Below are positions 1 through 35,279 of a DNA stretch of 35,279 nt, piece by piece (within the stretch, counting starts at the first letter, position 1; every line of letters begins with the position of its first letter). The notes under the pieces were generated by a model, which did no database searches, was not told the origin of the DNA, and saw nothing but the letters and a program-made list of their open reading frames with translations. The stretch comes from a virus: the IMG/VR virus record IMGVR_UViG_3300029567_000036, positions 1 through 35,279 of that record, one strand, 5' to 3'. The translations under genes and the position numbers were made by a program.

Positions 1-99
1 TGGAGCGGCGAGACGGTAGAAATACCCAAGTCTTACCTGCACGGCCGCAGCCGGGACGACTTCTTTGTGCTCTCTGTTAAAGGTGACAGTATGTACCCC
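1..99. repeat. Terminal direct repeat, copy A (identical to 35181..35279)
   Basis: Read directly: tggagcggcgagacgg...aggtgacagtatgtacccc occurs at both ends and is in frame with the repressor gene. This is most simply an assembly overlap of a circular or circularly permuted genome. Confidence 0.95.
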
Positions 100-351
100 C
101 AGTATATGGACGGCGACAAGGTGCTGATCCTGAAGCAGAGCACCATGAACCGCTCCGGTGAGATTGGAGCCATCATCTATGACGGCGATATGGCTACATT
201 GAAGAAGATAGAATATGTGGACGGTGAGGACTGGGTGAAGCTTATTCCTATCAACCCTGAGTACACCCCTAAGACCATCCGAAACGAGGACCTGGAGCAA
301 TGCCATGTTCTTGGCATCCCCCGCCTGCTGGTCCGCGAGATTGAACAGTAA
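1..351 (+). CDS. C-terminal part of the LexA/CI-like repressor (S24 peptidase domain); continuation of 34878..35279
   Basis: Frame 1 is open from base 1. It contains GDSMYP (catalytic Ser) and ATLKKI (Lys). It continues the frame that ends at 35279 through the repeat. The track's GTG start at 67 is internal. Confidence 0.9.
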   Translation, partial: WSGETVEIPKSYLHGRSRDDFFVLSVKGDSMYPQYMDGDKVLILKQSTMNRSGEIGAIIYDGDMATLKKIEYVDGEDWVKLIPINPEYTPKTIRNEDLEQCHVLGIPRLLVREIEQ

Positions 352-380
352 GAAAAGCAGAATAAAACCGATATATTATT

Positions 381-409
381 TTGACATACCGCAATTCTGC
401 GATATGAAT
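381..409 (+). promoter_or_regulatory. Sigma70-like promoter candidate upstream of the bPH gene
   Basis: TTGACA at 381..386, followed 16-17 nt later by TATGAAT at 403..409, lying in the AT-rich gap after the repressor stop. Confidence 0.4.
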
Positions 410-438
410 ATATTTATTTTCAGAGGAGAAAACAGAAA

Positions 439-957
439 ATGAAAAAGTACCTTCAAAAGAGCATGACCCCCAATGAGCAAGTCACACTGGAAGCCAAATT
501 CCACTGGATCGTCTATCTGCTGCCCGCTGTCTTATTTGTCCTGTTTTTTATCATGGGAATCTCCAGCGGCAAAGAGAATTTTGCAGGTTTCCTCATTTTG
601 GGCATTGTGCTGGCAGTTGTGGCTATGATCCCGGCCTTTAAGTACACCATGTTCAGTGAGCTTGCCGTGACCAACAAGAAGATTTACGGCAAGACCGGGT
701 TTATTAAGACCAACGAAATGGGTTCCCCCATTAAGCAAATCCAGAATGTTGCTGTCTCCAGCGGCCTGTTTGGCAAAATCTTTGGCTATGGCACTGTGGA
801 GGTAACGACCACTTCCGGTGCATATACCTTTCGGTATGTATCCAAGGCTAATGACTTCAAAAACACTGTAATGGCACAGATCGAAAACAGCGAAGAGAAC
901 AAAATGGATATGCACGCACAAAAGATTGCCGACGCTATCCATAACACCCAGGGCTAA
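439..957 (+). CDS. Membrane protein with a bacterial PH domain (bPH_2 / YdbS-YdbT-like)
   Basis: RBS GAGGAG lies upstream of the ATG. Two N-terminal hydrophobic helices (WIVYLLPAVLFVLFFIMGI, FAGFLILGIVLAVVAMIPAF) are followed by a beta-rich segment (ELAVTNKKIYGKTGF...GYGTVEVTTTSG..YTFRYV) typical of bPH_2. Confidence 0.6.
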   Translation: MKKYLQKSMTPNEQVTLEAKFHWIVYLLPAVLFVLFFIMGISSGKENFAGFLILGIVLAVVAMIPAFKYTMFSELAVTNKKIYGKTGFIKTNEMGSPIKQIQNVAVSSGLFGKIFGYGTVEVTTTSGAYTFRYVSKANDFKNTVMAQIENSEENKMDMHAQKIADAIHNTQG

Positions 958-992
958 ATAGCCTACCGGGCGCCGGCACTTGCTGCAAACGA

Positions 993-1661
993 ATGGTACA
1001 ACCTATGGACAAACTCTACAAACGAATTGCAAAAATCGGCCGGCAGTATGGCGCGGCCAAGGTGGTGCTTTACGGCTCCCGGGCGCGTGGTGACAGCCGG
1101 CAGCGCAGCGATATTGACCTGGCGGTGTACGGTATAGACGACCGAGGACGGCAGGCGCAGCTTGCCCAGGCCATTGAAGACCTGCCTACCCTGCTGGACT
1201 TTGACCTGGTTTTTGTCAGCCGGGACACAGACCCCAAACTGTTACAGAACATAGAAAAGGACGGTGTATCCTTAATGAGCAAATATGAAGAAAAGCGGGA
1301 CAAATTCAAAGACGCAGTGCAGCGCCTGGAGGAGGCCATTGCCGACTATGACAAGCTACCCAATTCCACCATGCGTGACGGTGTGATCCAGCGCTTTGAA
1401 TTCTGCACCGAGCTGGCGTGGAAAACCTGCCGTGAGTATCTGCTGGAGCAGGGCTATACGGAAGTGAACAGCCCCAAGCCGGTTATGCGCCAGGCTTTTG
1501 CTGACGGCCTTGTGGATAACGACCTGGTGTGGGTGGAGATCCTGAATGCCCGCAACCTGACCACGCACCTGTACGATGACGCAGAGGCCACCAAGATCTT
1601 TGAGGACATCAAAGACAACTATCTTCATCAATTCCAGGCGTTGGCCGGGAAGTTAGAGTAA
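993..1661 (+). CDS. Fused minimal nucleotidyltransferase (MNT) and HEPN (HI0074-type NTase substrate-binding) protein
   Basis: The N-terminus has LYGSRARGDSRQRSDIDLAV (GS-x10-DxD NTase motif). The C-terminus has QRFEFCTELAWK and ARNLTTHLY, which is R187-x4-H192-x-Y194 (RX4HXY, DNA 1551..1574). No clear SD precedes ATG 993 or ATG 1005, so the start is uncertain. Confidence 0.7.
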   Translation: MVQPMDKLYKRIAKIGRQYGAAKVVLYGSRARGDSRQRSDIDLAVYGIDDRGRQAQLAQAIEDLPTLLDFDLVFVSRDTDPKLLQNIEKDGVSLMSKYEEKRDKFKDAVQRLEEAIADYDKLPNSTMRDGVIQRFEFCTELAWKTCREYLLEQGYTEVNSPKPVMRQAFADGLVDNDLVWVEILNARNLTTHLYDDAEATKIFEDIKDNYLHQFQALAGKLE

Positions 1662-1764
1662 ATCACAACAAAATAAAAAAAGCCCTACCCTGCGCCAACA
1701 GGATAGAGCCGATAAGCAGGATATGCAGTACATAACCCACCCAACATTGGATATTGTACCACAT

Positions 1765-1795
1765 CCCTGCCGATAAATCAAGCAGGGCATTTTTG
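1765..1795 (+). terminator. Rho-independent terminator candidate after the MNT-HEPN gene
   Basis: Stem ccctgc (1765..1770) pairs with gcaggg (1782..1787), followed by catttttg. Confidence 0.45.
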
Positions 1796-1831
1796 CGCCC
1801 TTTTTTAAGTACAATCTATGGGAGTGGTACA

Positions 1832-3265
1832 ATGAAATATGCAGCGGCATATATCCGCGTAAGTGACGACCGGCAAGACGAGTACAGCCCGGACAGCCAG
1901 CTTAAACTCATTCGTGAGTACGCCGGCAGAAACGGCTACTGCGTGCCGGATGAATATGTATTCTATGACGATGGTATCTCCGGGCGTAGCGTAAAAAAGC
2001 GCAAGGCGTTCAATGATATGATCGCCTTTGCAAAAAGCAAGGAGCACCCATTCCAGGCAATTCTTGTATGGAAATTCAGCCGGTTTGCTCGGAACCAAGA
2101 AGAAAGCATCGTATATAAGTCCATGCTGCGGCGCATCGGCGTGTCGGTGATCTCCATATCCGAGACCATAGACGACTCGCCCTTTGCCCCGCTGATTGAA
2201 CGCATTATAGAATTCATGGACGAGTATTACAGCACACGCCTATCCCAGGAAGTGACTCGGGGCATGACGGAAAAGGCAAGCCGTGGCGAAGCCATGAGCG
2301 CCGGTGCCTTTGGCTATGACCTCCAAAACAAGGTATTCACACCCAACGAGGACGCACCCACCGTGCGGTACATCTTTAATGCTTTTCTGTCCGGCAAAGG
2401 CTACCGCAAGATTGCTATGGAGCTGAACGCCATGGGCGTAAAAACCTACCGAGGCAACCCACCGGACAACCGCTTTGTGGAGTATATACTGATGAACCCG
2501 GTGTATGCAGGTAAAATCCGCTGGAGCACAGACGGCAGAGCCTCCAGAGACCGGTACAAAGGCGATAACAGCAAGGTTATGTATGTGGACGGCAAGCACC
2601 AGCCGATCATAGATCAAGACACATTCGATCAAGTACAGGAGAAGATCATGGAACAGAAAAGACGGTATGGCAAATGGCAGCGCAAGGAGCAGCCTGTCAC
2701 ATTCATGCTGAAAGGACTTTTGCGCTGCGACACCTGCGGTGCCACGCTGACCTATATTGCCGCCAGGGATCCCGCCGTTCAATGCCACAACTACGCCCGG
2801 GGCAAGTGCAAGGTGTCCCACTACCTATCCATACGAAAGGCCAACGCTGCGGTGATTGCTGCCATAGAAAAATCTCTGAAGACCCTGGAATTCAATGTGC
2901 TTCCAAAGGAGCAGCTGCAAAATGAAGTGGTAGACTACTCGCTACTCATTCGCAAGGAAGAAGAAAAGATCAAGCGGGCCAGTGATGCCTACGATGCCGG
3001 GTATGACACACTGGAGGAATACGGCCGCAAAAAGCGAGCATTTCAAAACAAGATTGAAGCGCTCAAAGCCGAGCAGGTCAAGGTCGAGAAGTCACAGAGC
3101 GGCGAAATTCCGCCCCAGTTCGTCCAGCAAGCCAGTTTTGTGCTCAATTTGATAAAGTCTCCGGATACAGCGGAAAGCGTCAAGAACGAAGCCCTGCGCT
3201 CCATTGTAGATCACATCACATTCAAAAAGCCGGACAACACACTGGAGATATTCTACTATATTTGA
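1832..3265 (+). CDS. Large serine recombinase (phage integrase)
   Basis: MKYAAAYIRVSDDRQ (catalytic Ser) with a resolvase-like N-terminus, a recombinase domain, a Cys-rich zinc ribbon (CDTCGATL...CHNYARGKC) and a C-terminal coiled coil. ATG 1832 has RBS GGAG at 1821; the track's start at 1754 is an upstream extension. Confidence 0.9.
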   Translation: MKYAAAYIRVSDDRQDEYSPDSQLKLIREYAGRNGYCVPDEYVFYDDGISGRSVKKRKAFNDMIAFAKSKEHPFQAILVWKFSRFARNQEESIVYKSMLRRIGVSVISISETIDDSPFAPLIERIIEFMDEYYSTRLSQEVTRGMTEKASRGEAMSAGAFGYDLQNKVFTPNEDAPTVRYIFNAFLSGKGYRKIAMELNAMGVKTYRGNPPDNRFVEYILMNPVYAGKIRWSTDGRASRDRYKGDNSKVMYVDGKHQPIIDQDTFDQVQEKIMEQKRRYGKWQRKEQPVTFMLKGLLRCDTCGATLTYIAARDPAVQCHNYARGKCKVSHYLSIRKANAAVIAAIEKSLKTLEFNVLPKEQLQNEVVDYSLLIRKEEEKIKRASDAYDAGYDTLEEYGRKKRAFQNKIEALKAEQVKVEKSQSGEIPPQFVQQASFVLNLIKSPDTAESVKNEALRSIVDHITFKKPDNTLEIFYYI

Positions 3266-3356
3266 TGGATTTTTAGCCGCATTTTCCGCCACGAATTGAA
3301 AAATAAGTGCGATTTTTGGCTTAACGCCGTCATTGATTGTCCATATTTTTACTCTG

Positions 3357-3396
3357 TATCTAAATGCAATACAGGCCTCTTTATTGCATTTAGATA
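3357..3396. promoter_or_regulatory. Perfect 15-bp inverted repeat with a 10-bp spacer; candidate attP core
   Basis: tatctaaatgcaata (3357..3371), spacer caggcctctt, then tattgcatttagata (3382..3396). It lies in the noncoding gap 3' of the integrase. No flanking U-tract, so it does not look like a classic terminator. Confidence 0.4.
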
Positions 3397-3410
3397 TAAT
3401 TAGTATAGAT

Positions 3411-3446
3411 AAAGGCCGAACAGTCTTGTAAACTGCCCGGCCTTTT
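3411..3446. terminator. Hairpin between the convergent integrase and 54-aa ORF (terminator-like; better U-tract on the plus strand)
   Basis: aaaggccg (3411..3418) pairs with cggccttt (3438..3445), followed by tctc. Confidence 0.45.
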
Positions 3447-3447
3447 C

Positions 3448-3612
3448 TCACATCAGCATTGTCGATATTGGAATTATGCGGATAATGTCACCATTTTGGG
3501 CTTTAATGCCAACAGAAAGTTGTTTGTAACGCAGTCCATCATCCACTAAAACAGCTTCGATGATCACATAGTCCGCAGTTTCAACCAAATCTTTGGTATC
3601 TTCCACAATCAT
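3448..3612 (-). CDS. Hypothetical 54-aa protein (below the ORF-track cutoff); moron
   Basis: Hand translation gives MIVEDTKDLVETADYVIIEAVLVDDGLRYKQLSVGIKAQNGDIIRIIPISTMLM. A perfect RBS AGGAGG lies 8 nt upstream of ATG 3612. The ORF has its own promoter and is flanked by hairpins. Confidence 0.6.
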   Translation of the reverse strand: MIVEDTKDLVETADYVIIEAVLVDDGLRYKQLSVGIKAQNGDIIRIIPISTMLM

Positions 3613-3635
3613 TTTTCATTCCTCCTTTGTTTTTC

Positions 3636-3665
3636 GTTATACTACAACGAGACAATGATTGTCAA
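3636..3665 (-). promoter_or_regulatory. Near-consensus sigma70 promoter for the 54-aa ORF
   Basis: On the minus strand, TTGACA (plus 3660..3665), an 18-nt spacer, then TATAAC (plus 3636..3641). The -35 overlaps the palindrome gacaat-g-attgtc (3651..3663). Confidence 0.5.
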
Positions 3666-3696
3666 TACCTTTCACTAATATTAAGTAAAAAAAGCA

Positions 3697-3732
3697 TATA
3701 TGAAAAAGCCCATCGGATAACCGGTGGGCTTT
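3697..3732 (-). terminator. Rho-independent terminator after the endolysin gene
   Basis: On the minus strand, aaagcccaccgg, loop ttat, ccgatgggcttt, followed by ttcatatatgcttttttt. Confidence 0.7.
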
Positions 3733-3737
3733 CTGTT

Positions 3738-4655
3738 TCACTTAATAAATTTATGATTGTCTGCGCATTCCCAGATACACAGCCAGCCGGAGGGGCAGCG
3801 TGCCCACAGGTTGCCGGTGGACAGCAAACGAATATCCGTCAGGGTAACGGCGGTACCTTTCTTCAGATATGCGTCTGCTTTAGGATTAGACGCGGTAGCG
3901 TGGGCCTTGCCGTTCTCCGTCAATTTTCCCACGGTTTTTCGCCCACTGGCAGCGCCTGCGCCCTTGTAGATTCCCCGCACAGCTGTCAAATGATATGTGC
4001 CGGGTTTTACGGTGGGTGCCGTGGGCGCAGACTTGCGGTAATGTATATCCTGTGTGGAATACGCCAGGCGCACATCGCGCTTTGGGGTAAACAACCACAG
4101 GGAAAGCACATCGCCTTTCAAGTCAGCCGGGCGAACATACACCTCTCTGCCGTTTTTCACCCGCGTGTATTTGCGGCGTGCGGCAGTCAAAGTGAACTTG
4201 CCGTCATACCAATACGGGTCCAAAATAATTAAATTGCCGTTTTTGTCGATGCCTGCGGCCAGCACATAGTGCCCGCTGTTGGAAAAGAGCATTTTGCCTC
4301 CGCCGCTTACATTGATAATCGCCTTATAGCCCTGTTTCAGATGTGCCACCAGCCGGTCCATATCTGTGGTGATGGCGTAGTCCAGACCGTATTTTTCTTT
4401 CATATACCGGGCCACCACGGCCATATCCGTGCCTTCCGCCGCCCGGGCACCCATACCCAAGCAGCGATGGGTCCACTGCCGGGTATTGAACACTCGAGTG
4501 GTGGAATTGCGCAGCGCCATTAAGGAAGCACACACCCCACAACCGCTGGTATAAACGCAGCCGGAGGTGCCGTACCGATAAGGGTGGGCCTTACTGGGGT
4601 ACGGTATGCCCTTGCAGGCAGTGGTCGTCTGCCGGCAATAATAAAGTGCAGACAT
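3738..4655 (-). CDS. Endolysin: papain-like (C39-like) cysteine peptidase with a C-terminal SH3b-like wall-binding domain
   Basis: SGCGVCASLMA (candidate catalytic Cys) and GHYVLAAG...ILDPY (His/Asp). The C-terminus GTYHLTAVRGIY...GNLWARCPSGWLCIW is SH3b-like. The gene sits directly after the holin with a TGATG overlap. Confidence 0.65.
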   Translation of the reverse strand: MSALYYCRQTTTACKGIPYPSKAHPYRYGTSGCVYTSGCGVCASLMALRNSTTRVFNTRQWTHRCLGMGARAAEGTDMAVVARYMKEKYGLDYAITTDMDRLVAHLKQGYKAIINVSGGGKMLFSNSGHYVLAAGIDKNGNLIILDPYWYDGKFTLTAARRKYTRVKNGREVYVRPADLKGDVLSLWLFTPKRDVRLAYSTQDIHYRKSAPTAPTVKPGTYHLTAVRGIYKGAGAASGRKTVGKLTENGKAHATASNPKADAYLKKGTAVTLTDIRLLSTGNLWARCPSGWLCIWECADNHKFIK

Positions 4656-7332: not shown

Positions 7333-7566
7333 CTATTTTATTTTGCGTTCACGCACGGCTCGTGCGCCACTCAAAAAGCCCATTATGTAAACGCTCAAAA
7401 GCGATCGGCTGCATCTCCACTGCACATCTTCTGAACAATCGGAACGATATGCATCACGGTAACAAAGTCTCGCCCTTTCCAAAATGTCCACCGTTGCTAT
7501 ATCCGACAGGCGTATAGCCTCATCGATGTTGCAACGACAACTAAAATTCTCATGTGATTCCATCAT
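7333..7566 (-). CDS. Hypothetical 77-aa Cys-rich protein, coupled to the antirepressor
   Basis: RBS AGGAGG overlaps the ant stop codon (tgcataTAGGAGGccATGATG). Confidence 0.55.
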   Translation of the reverse strand: MMESHENFSCRCNIDEAIRLSDIATVDILERARLCYRDAYRSDCSEDVQWRCSRSLLSVYIMGFLSGARAVRERKIK

Positions 7567-7572
7567 GGCCTC

Positions 7573-8262
7573 CTATATGCATAACAGACGGAAGGTTTCT
7601 CTCCCCTTGGGTGTTACCAATGTTTGAGTGCCTGCCCATTTTGTTTTATCATTATAGGATTCTTTGATTTCAAACAATCCTGCATTCTTGTCCTCATACG
7701 GCATTAAGCGCCCGCGTTTATCACGGTATAAATATTTTTTGTCTAACAGGAATGCAATAAAGGTCTTAGGACCGATTCCCAGTTGCTTTGCGGTTTCCCG
7801 AAAATTCGTAAGCAAATTACGACTTACCAATTCATCAAAATATTCTGCCTTTGGTTGCATTGTTTGTACCGCCACCGTAAGTTTTGAATTCTCCTGCATA
7901 GCCGTTCTTAAATTCTGCTCCGCCATACGCAGCGCCCGGGACATTACCATTTCAGGCGTATTCCAAGCATTTTCCAGCTCGATAAAATACAAGCGTGCCT
8001 GTTTACCTCTATCATTGCGCTGGAGCATACAGAGCTCCTTAGCCATTTCAATGGTCAACTGCGCATCATTTCCCGGCCTACCGCGCTCGCCGGTATTTTC
8101 GCACAAAAATGTGCGAAAATCATTGCCCTCCACAAATCCATATTCGCACATTCTTGGAAACCAGTTGCGAAATGAGCTTTTCACTTCCAAGAATTTATGC
8201 AATTCTCTTGCCGACACCGTTGGCCTATCGCCATCGTAATTCACTTTGATTAGCTCGTTCAT
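7573..8262 (-). CDS. Phage antirepressor (AntA/AntB-like N-terminus plus KilAC/ANT-like C-terminus)
   Basis: MNELIKVNYDGDRPTVSARELHKFLEVKSSFRNWFPRMCEYGFVEGNDF... is typical of antirepressor N-domains. The C-terminal part contains AEYFDELV...LTNFRETAKQLGIGPKTFIAFL. ATG 8262 has RBS AAGGAG; the track's start at 8382 is an extension. Confidence 0.75.
   Translation of the reverse strand: MNELIKVNYDGDRPTVSARELHKFLEVKSSFRNWFPRMCEYGFVEGNDFRTFLCENTGERGRPGNDAQLTIEMAKELCMLQRNDRGKQARLYFIELENAWNTPEMVMSRALRMAEQNLRTAMQENSKLTVAVQTMQPKAEYFDELVSRNLLTNFRETAKQLGIGPKTFIAFLLDKKYLYRDKRGRLMPYEDKNAGLFEIKESYNDKTKWAGTQTLVTPKGRETFRLLCI
8095..8120. promoter_or_regulatory. 26-bp palindrome P1 (11-bp arms, aaaa centre) inside the ant coding sequence
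   Basis: attttcgcaca-aaaa-tgtgcgaaaat, a perfect dyad, encoding NDFRTFLCEN on the minus strand. Confidence 0.8.
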
Positions 8263-34877: not shown

Positions 34878-35279
34878 ATGAACGAAATTGCCGAACGATT
34901 ACTTGATCTCATTAATCGAAACAACGCAACTTACGGCGAATTATCAAAACAAACTGGAATACCTAAATCCGCTATCCAAAGATATGCCACTGGAGAAACG
35001 GAAAAGATACCTATTACAAGAATAGAACTACTCGCCAAAGCACTCCATTCAAGTGCAGCCTATCTTATGGGTTGGGAAGAACCCACCTCTCTCCGTGCCC
35101 CGGAAGTAACAGAAGATACGGTGATCTTCCCGGTAATCGGTGAGATTGCCGCAGGGTATGACTACCCTGCGTACGAGGACTGGAGCGGCGAGACGGTAGA
35201 AATACCCAAGTCTTACCTGCACGGCCGCAGCCGGGACGACTTCTTTGTGCTCTCTGTTAAAGGTGACAGTATGTACCCC
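34878..35279 (+). CDS. N-terminal part of the LexA/CI-like repressor (XRE HTH plus the start of the S24 domain); continues at 1..351 across the circular junction
   Basis: RBS GAGGTG lies 7 nt before the ATG. Contains LSKQTGIPKSAIQRYATGE (HTH) and an Ala-Gly cleavage-site candidate in GEIAAGYD. The frame is open to the window end. The joined product is about 217 aa. Confidence 0.9.
   Translation, partial: MNEIAERLLDLINRNNATYGELSKQTGIPKSAIQRYATGETEKIPITRIELLAKALHSSAAYLMGWEEPTSLRAPEVTEDTVIFPVIGEIAAGYDYPAYEDWSGETVEIPKSYLHGRSRDDFFVLSVKGDSMYP
35181..35279. repeat. Terminal direct repeat, copy B (identical to 1..99)
   Basis: See 1..99. Confidence 0.95.

Follow-up and report, generated by a model that had tools for sequence, protein, structure and literature searches.

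A fused MNT-HEPN gene carried as optional cargo between the repressor and integrase of a gut Clostridia phage, a probable single-polypeptide type VII-like toxin–antitoxin

The virus record IMGVR_UViG_3300029567_000036 of IMG/VR, which we analysed over its full length of 35,279 nt (hereafter the window), carries between a CI-like repressor gene and a serine integrase gene an open reading frame (ORF) that joins a minimal nucleotidyltransferase (MNT) to a HEPN domain. The locus raises the question of what such a chain does in a phage: whether it is a toxin that silences itself, a nucleotidyltransferase (NTase) with another substrate, or one half of a system that includes the membrane protein encoded just ahead of it. 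The reading that we prefer, at a probability of roughly 0.6, is that ORF 1005..1661 acts as a single-polypeptide type VII-like toxin–antitoxin (TA), self-silenced in cis, which the phage would carry as an optional moron for aborted infection or prophage maintenance. The features that bear on this directly are listed here, with residues numbered as in the 222-aa ORF that begins at ATG 993 (G28 to Y194); in the 218-aa numbering each residue is 4 lower.

1005..1661, plus strand: fused MNT-HEPN gene (218 aa; the mechanical ORF from ATG 993 has 222 aa), from Pfam, NCBIfam, homologue alignments, an AlphaFold2 (AF2) model and PDB fold matches
1074..1118, plus strand: NTase catalytic motif G28-S29-x10-D40-x-D42, with no variation at G24, S25, D36 and D38 (218-aa numbering) in an alignment of 115 sequences
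1389..1400, plus strand: Q133-R-F-E136, the counterpart of the Mg2+-binding catalytic Q44/E47 of the Legionella HEPN in a residue-level alignment to 8xdj
1551..1574, plus strand: R187-x4-H192-x-Y194 (RNLTTHLY), aligned with Legionella R98/H103/Y105, with Y194 as the predicted AMP acceptor

Both halves of the protein were recognised by curated models. The MNT half matched Polbeta (PF18765, aa 11–99, E = 5.7e-16, 58.9 bits against a cut-off of 26.9) and NTP_transf_2 (PF01909, E = 9e-8, 32.8 bits against 21), and the HEPN half matched NTase_sub_bind (PF08780, aa 103–221, E = 1.4e-34, 119.2 bits against 31.8) as well as TIGR01987 (HI0074; E = 6.7e-28, 97.2 bits against 55.8), so that by these thresholds the C-terminal half belongs to the HI0074 family. 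An original prediction, made from the letters of the sequence without database searches, had described ORF 993..1661 as an MNT joined to an HI0074-type HEPN with intact GS-x10-DxD and RX4HXY motifs and had proposed searches with NTP_transf_2, NTase_sub_bind/HEPN and bPH_2 models; all of these matched above cut-off, and reading the translation confirmed both motifs and their numbering. Related models stayed under their cut-offs on the same protein, namely HepT-like PF01934 (20.3 against 23.5 bits, with PF08780 dominating) and the NCBIfam models MntA_antitoxin (51.2 against 60) and HepT_toxin (25.6 against 60). The two domains are encoded in one ORF, with neither a stop nor an internal start between them, and the locus is thus not a pair of adjacent genes. 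Homologues begin at a conserved MxxLY, 21 residues ahead of LYGSR and in many cases behind a strong Shine–Dalgarno (SD) sequence, and for an identical MNT-HEPN gene at another locus a gene caller predicted a length of 218 aa. ATG 1005 is therefore the likely start.

Structure prediction pointed in the same direction. In the AF2 model (pLDDT 93.3, pTM 0.85), the all-helical fold of the HEPN half superposed on 8xdj, 8xeh and TTHA0048 (1wty) (TMt 0.88–0.94, root-mean-square deviation (rmsd) 1.1–1.3 Å), with a TMt of 0.92 and an rmsd of 1.1 Å to the Legionella HEPN toxin, a further match to 8yuf (TMt ∼0.9) and a TMt of 0.75–0.78 to HI0074 (1jog), while the MNT half of the model superposed on the Legionella MNT antitoxin (8xeo, TMt 0.80), Shewanella MntA and HI0073. 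At the sequence level, the HEPN half matched the Legionella HEPN (8xdj) with an E-value of 2.7e-17, and the best PDB match was TTHA0048 (7.5e-21, 42% identity). The Legionella HEPN is toxic and cuts RNA in an Mg-dependent manner; its catalytic residues, as defined by mutation, are Q44/E47 and not those of RX4H, and its MNT partner, for which GS-x10-DxD is essential for AMPylation, poly-AMPylates Y105 of the HEPN RX4HXY motif (Jin et al., Nat Commun 2024, PMC11586414). In the window protein, Q133/E136 and R187/H192/Y194 are both kept, so the predicted catalytic site is intact whichever of the two it is.

This combination of motifs is widespread. A word-indexed search returned 1055 clusters at 90% identity, which answers the question, posed with the original prediction, of how often the fused architecture occurs: it is common. 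Nearly all of the 120 clusters listed (of 1055) contain proteins of 216–224 aa with the same three Pfam domains. Among 50%-identity representatives (1.84 billion searched) 5017 matches reached E ≤ 1e-3, among them 1255 with E ≤ 1e-10 and 45 with E ≤ 1e-30; full-length fusions account for ∼43 of the best 150 representatives, down to ∼30% identity, and are interleaved there with stand-alone HEPN (∼130 aa) and MNT (∼95 aa) proteins. At least 497 relatives were found in a scan of one genome per species. An alignment of 115 sequences showed G24, S25, D36, D38, D67, Q129, E132, R183, H188 and Y190 (218-aa numbering) to be invariant or nearly so: the E of Q-x-F-E is invariant and its Q near-invariant, and the R, H and Y of RX4HXY are invariant. 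Of 119 close homologues, 118 have the MNT and the HEPN motif together; for fused ORFs taken from distinct species the corresponding number is 59 of 63, and Q-x-F-E is found in 62 of these 63. Split two-gene forms, with an MNT of ∼100 aa followed by a HEPN of ∼135 aa, occur as well (loci L093–L095 in our numbering; 46–51% identity to the HEPN half), and from these sequence relationships fused and split forms interconvert within one family, as in Shewanella.

A fused protein of this kind has been characterised in Shewanella oneidensis, where FhepTA (SO_1440) of prophage CP4So is a fused MNT-HEPN TA (Yao et al., Nucleic Acids Res 2026, PMC13000451). Full-length FhepTA is non-toxic and its HEPN alone is toxic; three AMPs are put on the Tyr beside the RNase motif in an intramolecular, linker-dependent self-oligoAMPylation, the MNT domain prevents dimerisation of the HEPN, and two cysteines form an added redox switch (PMC13000451). 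The self-inhibited RNase in one chain that the original prediction proposed thus has an experimental precedent, which would apply to the window protein by analogy. The original prediction did not recognise its two-gene arrangement as a described system; the fused architecture, however, is already described by the same precedent and by a 2013 survey of HEPN proteins, according to which the PF08780/PF01934 group is 'occasionally fused to MNT'. The architecture, chemistry and prophage location of MNT-HEPN are already in the literature, and no new principle is involved.

By analogy with the Legionella and Shewanella proteins, the MNT domain would use ATP to (oligo)AMPylate Tyr194 of the HEPN Y-loop in cis, and covalent tethering would also hinder dimerisation of the HEPN, leaving the RNase silent. 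This silencing would be lost if AMPylation failed or was reversed, if the MNT half was degraded or if a trigger protein bound. Released HEPN domains would then dimerise and cut RNA (rRNA or mRNA), growth would stop, and the outcome would be either that the infection by a superinfecting phage is aborted or that loss of the prophage is penalised.

Several observations weigh against this reading. The mechanism is transferred from Legionella proteins of ∼30% identity that are encoded by two genes, or from FhepTA, whose HEPN is of another family (HepT-type). FhepTA needs an 8-residue linker and two cysteines, whereas in the AF2 model of the window protein strand 88–92 passes directly into helix 93–117, with no distinct linker evident, and there is one nearby cysteine (C138). 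Because no linker is evident and only C138 is conserved, and this in close relatives only, the geometry of cis-AMPylation in the window protein is uncertain and to be taken as putative. The SD sequence is weak in the window copy and its close relatives, in agreement with the remark in the original prediction that no clear SD precedes the fusion ORF. PADLOC, run on MNT-HEPN, returned only matches of the MNT domain to the candidate PDC-S09. Finally, beyond the closest clade MNT-HEPN occurs mostly in contexts other than prophage lysogeny modules.

The cysteine itself deserves mention. C138 (in FEFC, window 1404–1406) lies two residues past the Mg-site Glu. All 119 close homologues have it, but among 63 more distant fused ORFs only 33 do, and the Legionella and Thermus proteins have a Thr in its place. 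The second Cys of the window HEPN, C146, is not conserved. Since FhepTA has a reported cysteine redox switch, C138 may by analogy have a regulatory role.

What the gene does for the phage has to be read from its surroundings. The window is a circularly closed contig in which bases 1–99 recur identically at 35181–35279 (99 nt), giving a genome of ∼35,180 bp, and the repressor gene, which starts at ATG 34879, crosses the contig junction into 1..351. Apart from MNT-HEPN, the genes of the module are the following.

34879..35279, plus strand: CI-like repressor, N-terminal helix-turn-helix (HTH) part, from an ATG read in the sequence; continues over the junction
1..351, plus strand: CI-like repressor, C-terminal Peptidase_S24 part (Pfam Peptidase_S24, E = 4.2e-15)
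439..957, plus strand: bPH_2 membrane protein of 172 aa with two transmembrane helices (TM), an independent moron as judged from its relatives (bPH_2 E = 8.8e-12, 45.5 bits against a cut-off of 22; PHROG 3707)
1832..3265, plus strand: large serine integrase (Resolvase 1.2e-25, Recombinase 1.3e-21, Zn_ribbon_recom 3.5e-6)

A full-length homologue of the repressor (230 aa) at two other loci (L001 and L002) consists of HTH and S24 parts. The repressor, bPH, MNT-HEPN and integrase genes all lie on the plus strand, the lysogeny strand, and the minus strand carries genes for the tape-measure, major head and portal proteins, the large terminase (TerL) and a DnaD-like protein. The repeated ends and these structural genes identify the window as the complete genome (∼35.2 kb) of a temperate siphophage. 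MNT-HEPN therefore lies in the lysogeny module of a temperate phage and on its lysogeny strand, as had been predicted, and its position between the CI-like repressor and the integrase makes expression by the lysogen most likely. In temperate phages of Gram-positive bacteria, the slot between repressor and integrase commonly holds exclusion or abortive-infection genes that the lysogen expresses.

Comparison of related phages showed the contents of this slot to vary. In phages of the same backbone, that is, with a repressor and serine integrase ∼99% identical to those of the window phage, MNT-HEPN is preceded by two other membrane proteins (L001) or is fused in frame to one or two Xre-type HTH domains (L002 and the protein P0002); in phages with another backbone, which includes a tyrosine integrase, the upstream position is empty or occupied by a DUF4041-T5orf172 protein. 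The gene lies directly upstream of an integrase, usually after a repressor, in at least six phage lineages, and this integrase can be a tyrosine recombinase (P0096, P0011, L009 and L022) or a serine recombinase (the window, P0101 and P0013). In 8 of 60 species-level contexts the gene is followed directly by a recombinase gene; elsewhere its neighbours include specificity subunits of restriction-modification systems, Fic, DUF4143 and housekeeping genes. Further phages of the same backbone are without MNT-HEPN (L122, L128 and L135; L120, L123 and L134). Because the gene recurs in several unrelated prophages and is absent from phages of the same backbone, it is an optional, mobile, single-gene moron of the repressor–integrase slot, and the slot is a variable cargo site with defence-type genes.

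In sibling phages, the cargo of the slot is Abi_2, following a 74%-identical bPH, or DUF4041-T5orf172 (L102–L104 4735–5695, minus strand; L009 2509–3957; L120, L123 and L134). The presence of Abi_2 at the same place fits a defence-type cargo, and we infer a defence role for MNT-HEPN solely from such genomic associations. The fusions to HTH domains (L002 3539–4681, L006 and the 310-aa P0002) carry the Xre-type HTH or HTHs on the N-terminus of a 96%-identical MNT-HEPN, with a strong SD ahead. The usual start Met is replaced by Ile in P0002, which by its sequence is therefore a true three-domain protein; the HTH-MNT-HEPN fusion is possibly an autoregulated form. At L008–L011, the sequence upstream of MNT-HEPN resembles a remnant of the HTH linker.

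The membrane protein encoded ahead of MNT-HEPN had been proposed as its sensor or partner. Domain scans bear out its description as a two-TM bPH_2-like ORF between the CI-like repressor and the serine integrase on the repressor strand: hydrophobic helices at ∼aa 23–41 and 48–67 are followed by the bPH domain (bacterial PH domain, YdbS/YdbT-like), and the ORF falls into PHROG 3707 ('membrane-flanked domain', category moron, E = 5e-19). A two-gene defence system, in which this protein would sense infection and control the RNase, is suggested by the layout, since both genes are of moron type, the slot elsewhere holds Abi_2, and in the window, as in one identical locus from a metagenome, the two are adjacent and co-directional with a gap of 35–47 nt. 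Against it stands the survey of co-occurrence that the original prediction had called for, which found none across independent lineages. A family HMM built from 31 relatives of bPH gave zero matches when run on all ORFs of 100 MNT-HEPN loci (∼4–5 kb around the gene); the genes upstream of MNT-HEPN in 61 species-level contexts were diverse (HTH_3 in 5, S24 in 3), with no recurrence of bPH_2; and the bPH gene was found in none of 12 IMG/VR contigs with a 91–98% identical MNT-HEPN, all of which have other genes upstream. Of the relatives of bPH itself, one with 99% identity has the same arrangement as the window (one metagenomic locus), one with 74% identity occupies the same phage slot and is followed by an Abi_2 gene that replaces MNT-HEPN, and one with 55% identity stands alone ahead of a tyrosine integrase, such that two of the three distinct arrangements examined (L102–L105) are without MNT-HEPN. 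Because the two genes do not co-occur, the two-gene system is largely refuted and we regard it as highly improbable. On these comparisons, the bPH_2 protein is a separate moron and not a conserved partner of MNT-HEPN; it probably functions at the cell envelope.

If the gene stands on its own, its product could still be a domesticated nucleotidyltransferase that is no toxin but modifies a small molecule, such as an antibiotic, or else another protein or a nucleic acid, with the HEPN half serving for substrate binding only. HI0074 was originally named a 'nucleotidyltransferase substrate-binding subunit', a name that databases use for the homologues; according to the 2013 survey, HEPN domains are typically without catalytic residues when a multidomain protein combines them with an MNT; and the two-domain layout is common to aminoglycoside NTases, a caveat already raised with the original prediction. 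However, R-x4-H-x-Y and Q-x-F-E are kept almost throughout the family, the nearest characterised HEPN, that of Legionella, is a toxic RNase, and the protein has no match to KNTase_C, DUF4111 or resistance models. In whole-chain Foldseek comparisons, AAD(9), ANT(3'')(9) and AadA gave a TM-score of only ∼0.3 at an rmsd of ∼17 Å and 12–14% identity. We therefore consider a domesticated NTase improbable, and set aside an antibiotic nucleotidyltransferase (ANT, KNTase, AadA), for which Pfam and NCBIfam gave no match and the whole-chain fold match was poor. Hailong HalB (NF051895) was rejected as well: the match covers a motif of only 20 residues and scores 27.2 bits, where the cut-off is 190, and the fold TM-score is ∼0.23. 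A different objection accepts the fused TA but has it serve selfish prophage maintenance, or act as a general stress or ATP-level switch, rather than work against other phages. Such roles fit the same biochemistry as a defence role, many members of the family lie outside prophages beside housekeeping, restriction-modification or Fic genes, and FhepTA is regulated by ATP, redox state and proteolysis in a paper that shows no phage defence (PMC13000451). In a single chain, however, the abundances of toxin and antitoxin cannot diverge after loss of the gene unless the MNT half is selectively degraded, which makes classical post-segregational killing less straightforward, and a slot shared with Abi_2 and T5orf172 genes fits defence cargo; we think maintenance or a stress switch rather unlikely as the sole role. 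The narrower proposal that MNT-HEPN is a one-protein module of abortive infection or superinfection immunity, a CapRel-like sensor-effector that works by type VII TA chemistry, silenced in cis by Tyr AMPylation, released by a specific cue from the incoming phage and traded as a one-gene cassette among temperate Clostridia phages at the Abi_2 slot, is a possibility that we entertain only tentatively. The preferred reading of a single-polypeptide, self-silenced TA covers either outcome.

The non-coding sequence on both sides of the two morons contains candidate signals, as follows.

381..409, plus strand: possible sigma-70-type promoter of the morons, with TTGACA, a spacer of 16–17 nt and a weak -10, read from the sequence
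1784..1807, plus strand: intrinsic terminator between the moron slot and the integrase, AGGGC-loop-GCCCT followed by a T-run, from a consensus scan (stem 1784–1801)
1671..1746, minus strand: candidate small RNA of ∼75 nt with two hairpins (minimum free energy −32.2 kcal/mol, z −5.4), assigned to the phage backbone and not to the cassette
1753..1781, minus strand: promoter-like site of the candidate small RNA, TTGATT, 17 nt and TGg-TACAAT (extended -10), from the consensus scan

The sigma70-like promoter that had been predicted at 381..409 holds up in part: its -35 at 381–386 is a perfect TTGACA, but TATGAA/ATGAAT makes a poor -10, and no promoter was reported for 381..409 by the consensus scan. 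The terminator, previously put at 1765..1795, is placed by the scan at stem 1784–1801 with a T-run to ∼1807. It is kept at L022 with a C-G to U-G change and belongs to a backbone element that is also found in phages without MNT-HEPN. On the plus strand, a hairpin at 1767–1789 and the terminator stem at 1784–1801 overlap; because bases are shared, the two could be mutually alternative.

The backbone element, a conserved stretch of ∼135 nt from the MNT-HEPN stop to the integrase start (∼1671–1808), is nearly identical in 24 IMG/VR phage contigs and stands before serine or tyrosine integrases; in 14 of the 24, which are without MNT-HEPN, it follows unrelated genes. This led us to reject it as a part of the MNT-HEPN cassette, for example as an antisense antitoxin RNA. 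On the minus strand, the promoter-like site is followed by ∼35 nt that form a 5′ hairpin and then by a 13-bp Rho-independent terminator hairpin (1710–1681, terminator by scan) with a U-run. In 18 variants, one of them the diverged copy at L022, which adjoins a 61%-identical MNT-HEPN, the -35, TG and -10 of this site vary little or not at all. When folded variant by variant (RNAalifold on the whole element was not used, as it paired promoter DNA with the transcript), all 18 keep the two-hairpin fold, with compensatory changes in the stems (UAUGU/ACAUA, UAUGC/GCAUA, AUGUG/CACAU, AUUGU/ACAAU and GGUGU/ACACC) and folding energies of −30 to −38 kcal/mol for the minus strand versus −12 to −26 kcal/mol for the plus strand. 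Rfam gave nothing above the gathering score in window 1–4000. The element is thus a candidate for encoding a ∼75-nt small RNA antisense to the 3′ end of moron-slot transcripts that head towards the integrase. A target in trans was rejected, as the sole complementary match of 11 nt (34363) is at chance level, and so was an encoded peptide, as the window copy has an ATG-led frame and the L022 copy has none. In several unrelated species, MNT-HEPN genes are followed by hairpins that have the loop (T)GTTGGCGCA and a preceding A-run in common, while their stems are unrelated; they were seen at window 1681–1710, just after the MNT-HEPN stop at L040, L050, L062 and L094, and at L121 3826–3855. In window-type elements this loop occurs in either orientation, with TTGGCG on the minus strand in the window and on the plus strand in L121. 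L022 has an additional copy of the window-type element upstream of its MNT-HEPN gene.

As to the phage itself, related host contigs are from gut Clostridia (Oscillospiraceae, Faecalibacterium, Agathobaculum and others). No nucleotide match to window 1–3300 was found among GenBank phages, and a protein search for relatives in cultured phages gave only four matches, to unannotated fecal 'Bacteriophage sp.' records. In integrated copies, a gene or gene fragment for Mn-catalase lies directly 3′ of the serine integrase (L101 6923–7030; L102–L104 ∼7350–7800), which suggests that the phage integrates into or beside the Mn-catalase gene; attP would then lie at ∼3266–3450 of the window. An ORF of 305 aa at the position expected for the lysin (window 3738–4655, minus strand) had no PHROG match at E ≤ 1e-5.

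If the proposed function is correct, the locus would offer a natural setting in which to test the biological role of the abundant but functionally obscure HEPN/MNT class, with gut Clostridia phages that differ only in the content of one slot (MNT-HEPN, Abi_2 or empty) as a natural test bed. The fused form would also be extended from the HepT lineage of Shewanella to the HI0074 lineage.

Among known systems, the HEPN-MNT type VII TA of Legionella pneumophila (8xdj, 8xeh, 8xeo and 8yuf) provides the closest solved structures to both halves. Like the window protein, it has an MNT that is short and lacks the long C-terminal helix, and it keeps both the RX4HXY Y-loop and the Q/E Mg site; unlike the window gene, it consists of two genes whose two proteins form hetero-oligomers, shares ∼30% identity with the window protein and lies on the chromosome rather than in a phage. 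HI0073/HI0074 of Haemophilus influenzae and TTHA0048 of Thermus represent the same HEPN family (TIGR01987, PF08780) as the C-terminal half but, in contrast to the fusion, HI0074 and TTHA0048 are stand-alone HEPN subunits beside a separate MNT gene and are known from structures. CapRel(SJ46), as cited in PMC13000451, is a fused toxSAS TA that senses a phage capsid protein, with both its trigger and its defence phenotype demonstrated. Going by that citation, it offers a conceptual parallel only, a prophage-borne single chain that unites toxin with antitoxin and could serve as both sensor and effector, and its fold and chemistry (tRNA pyrophosphorylation) are unrelated to MNT-HEPN. FhepTA differs in length (276 versus 218 aa), in its HEPN, which the paper describes as HepT-related (34% identical to SO_3166) whereas that of the window is of the HI0074/PF08780 type, in its essential 8-residue linker and two-cysteine redox switch, neither of which is evident in the window protein, and in its host (Gammaproteobacteria versus gut Clostridia); it is set apart here by its published description and by family scores rather than by a sequence-to-sequence comparison. 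Common to FhepTA and the window protein are a single polypeptide with an N-terminal MNT and a C-terminal HEPN, both motifs intact, carriage by a phage or prophage, and close split two-gene relatives in the same family.

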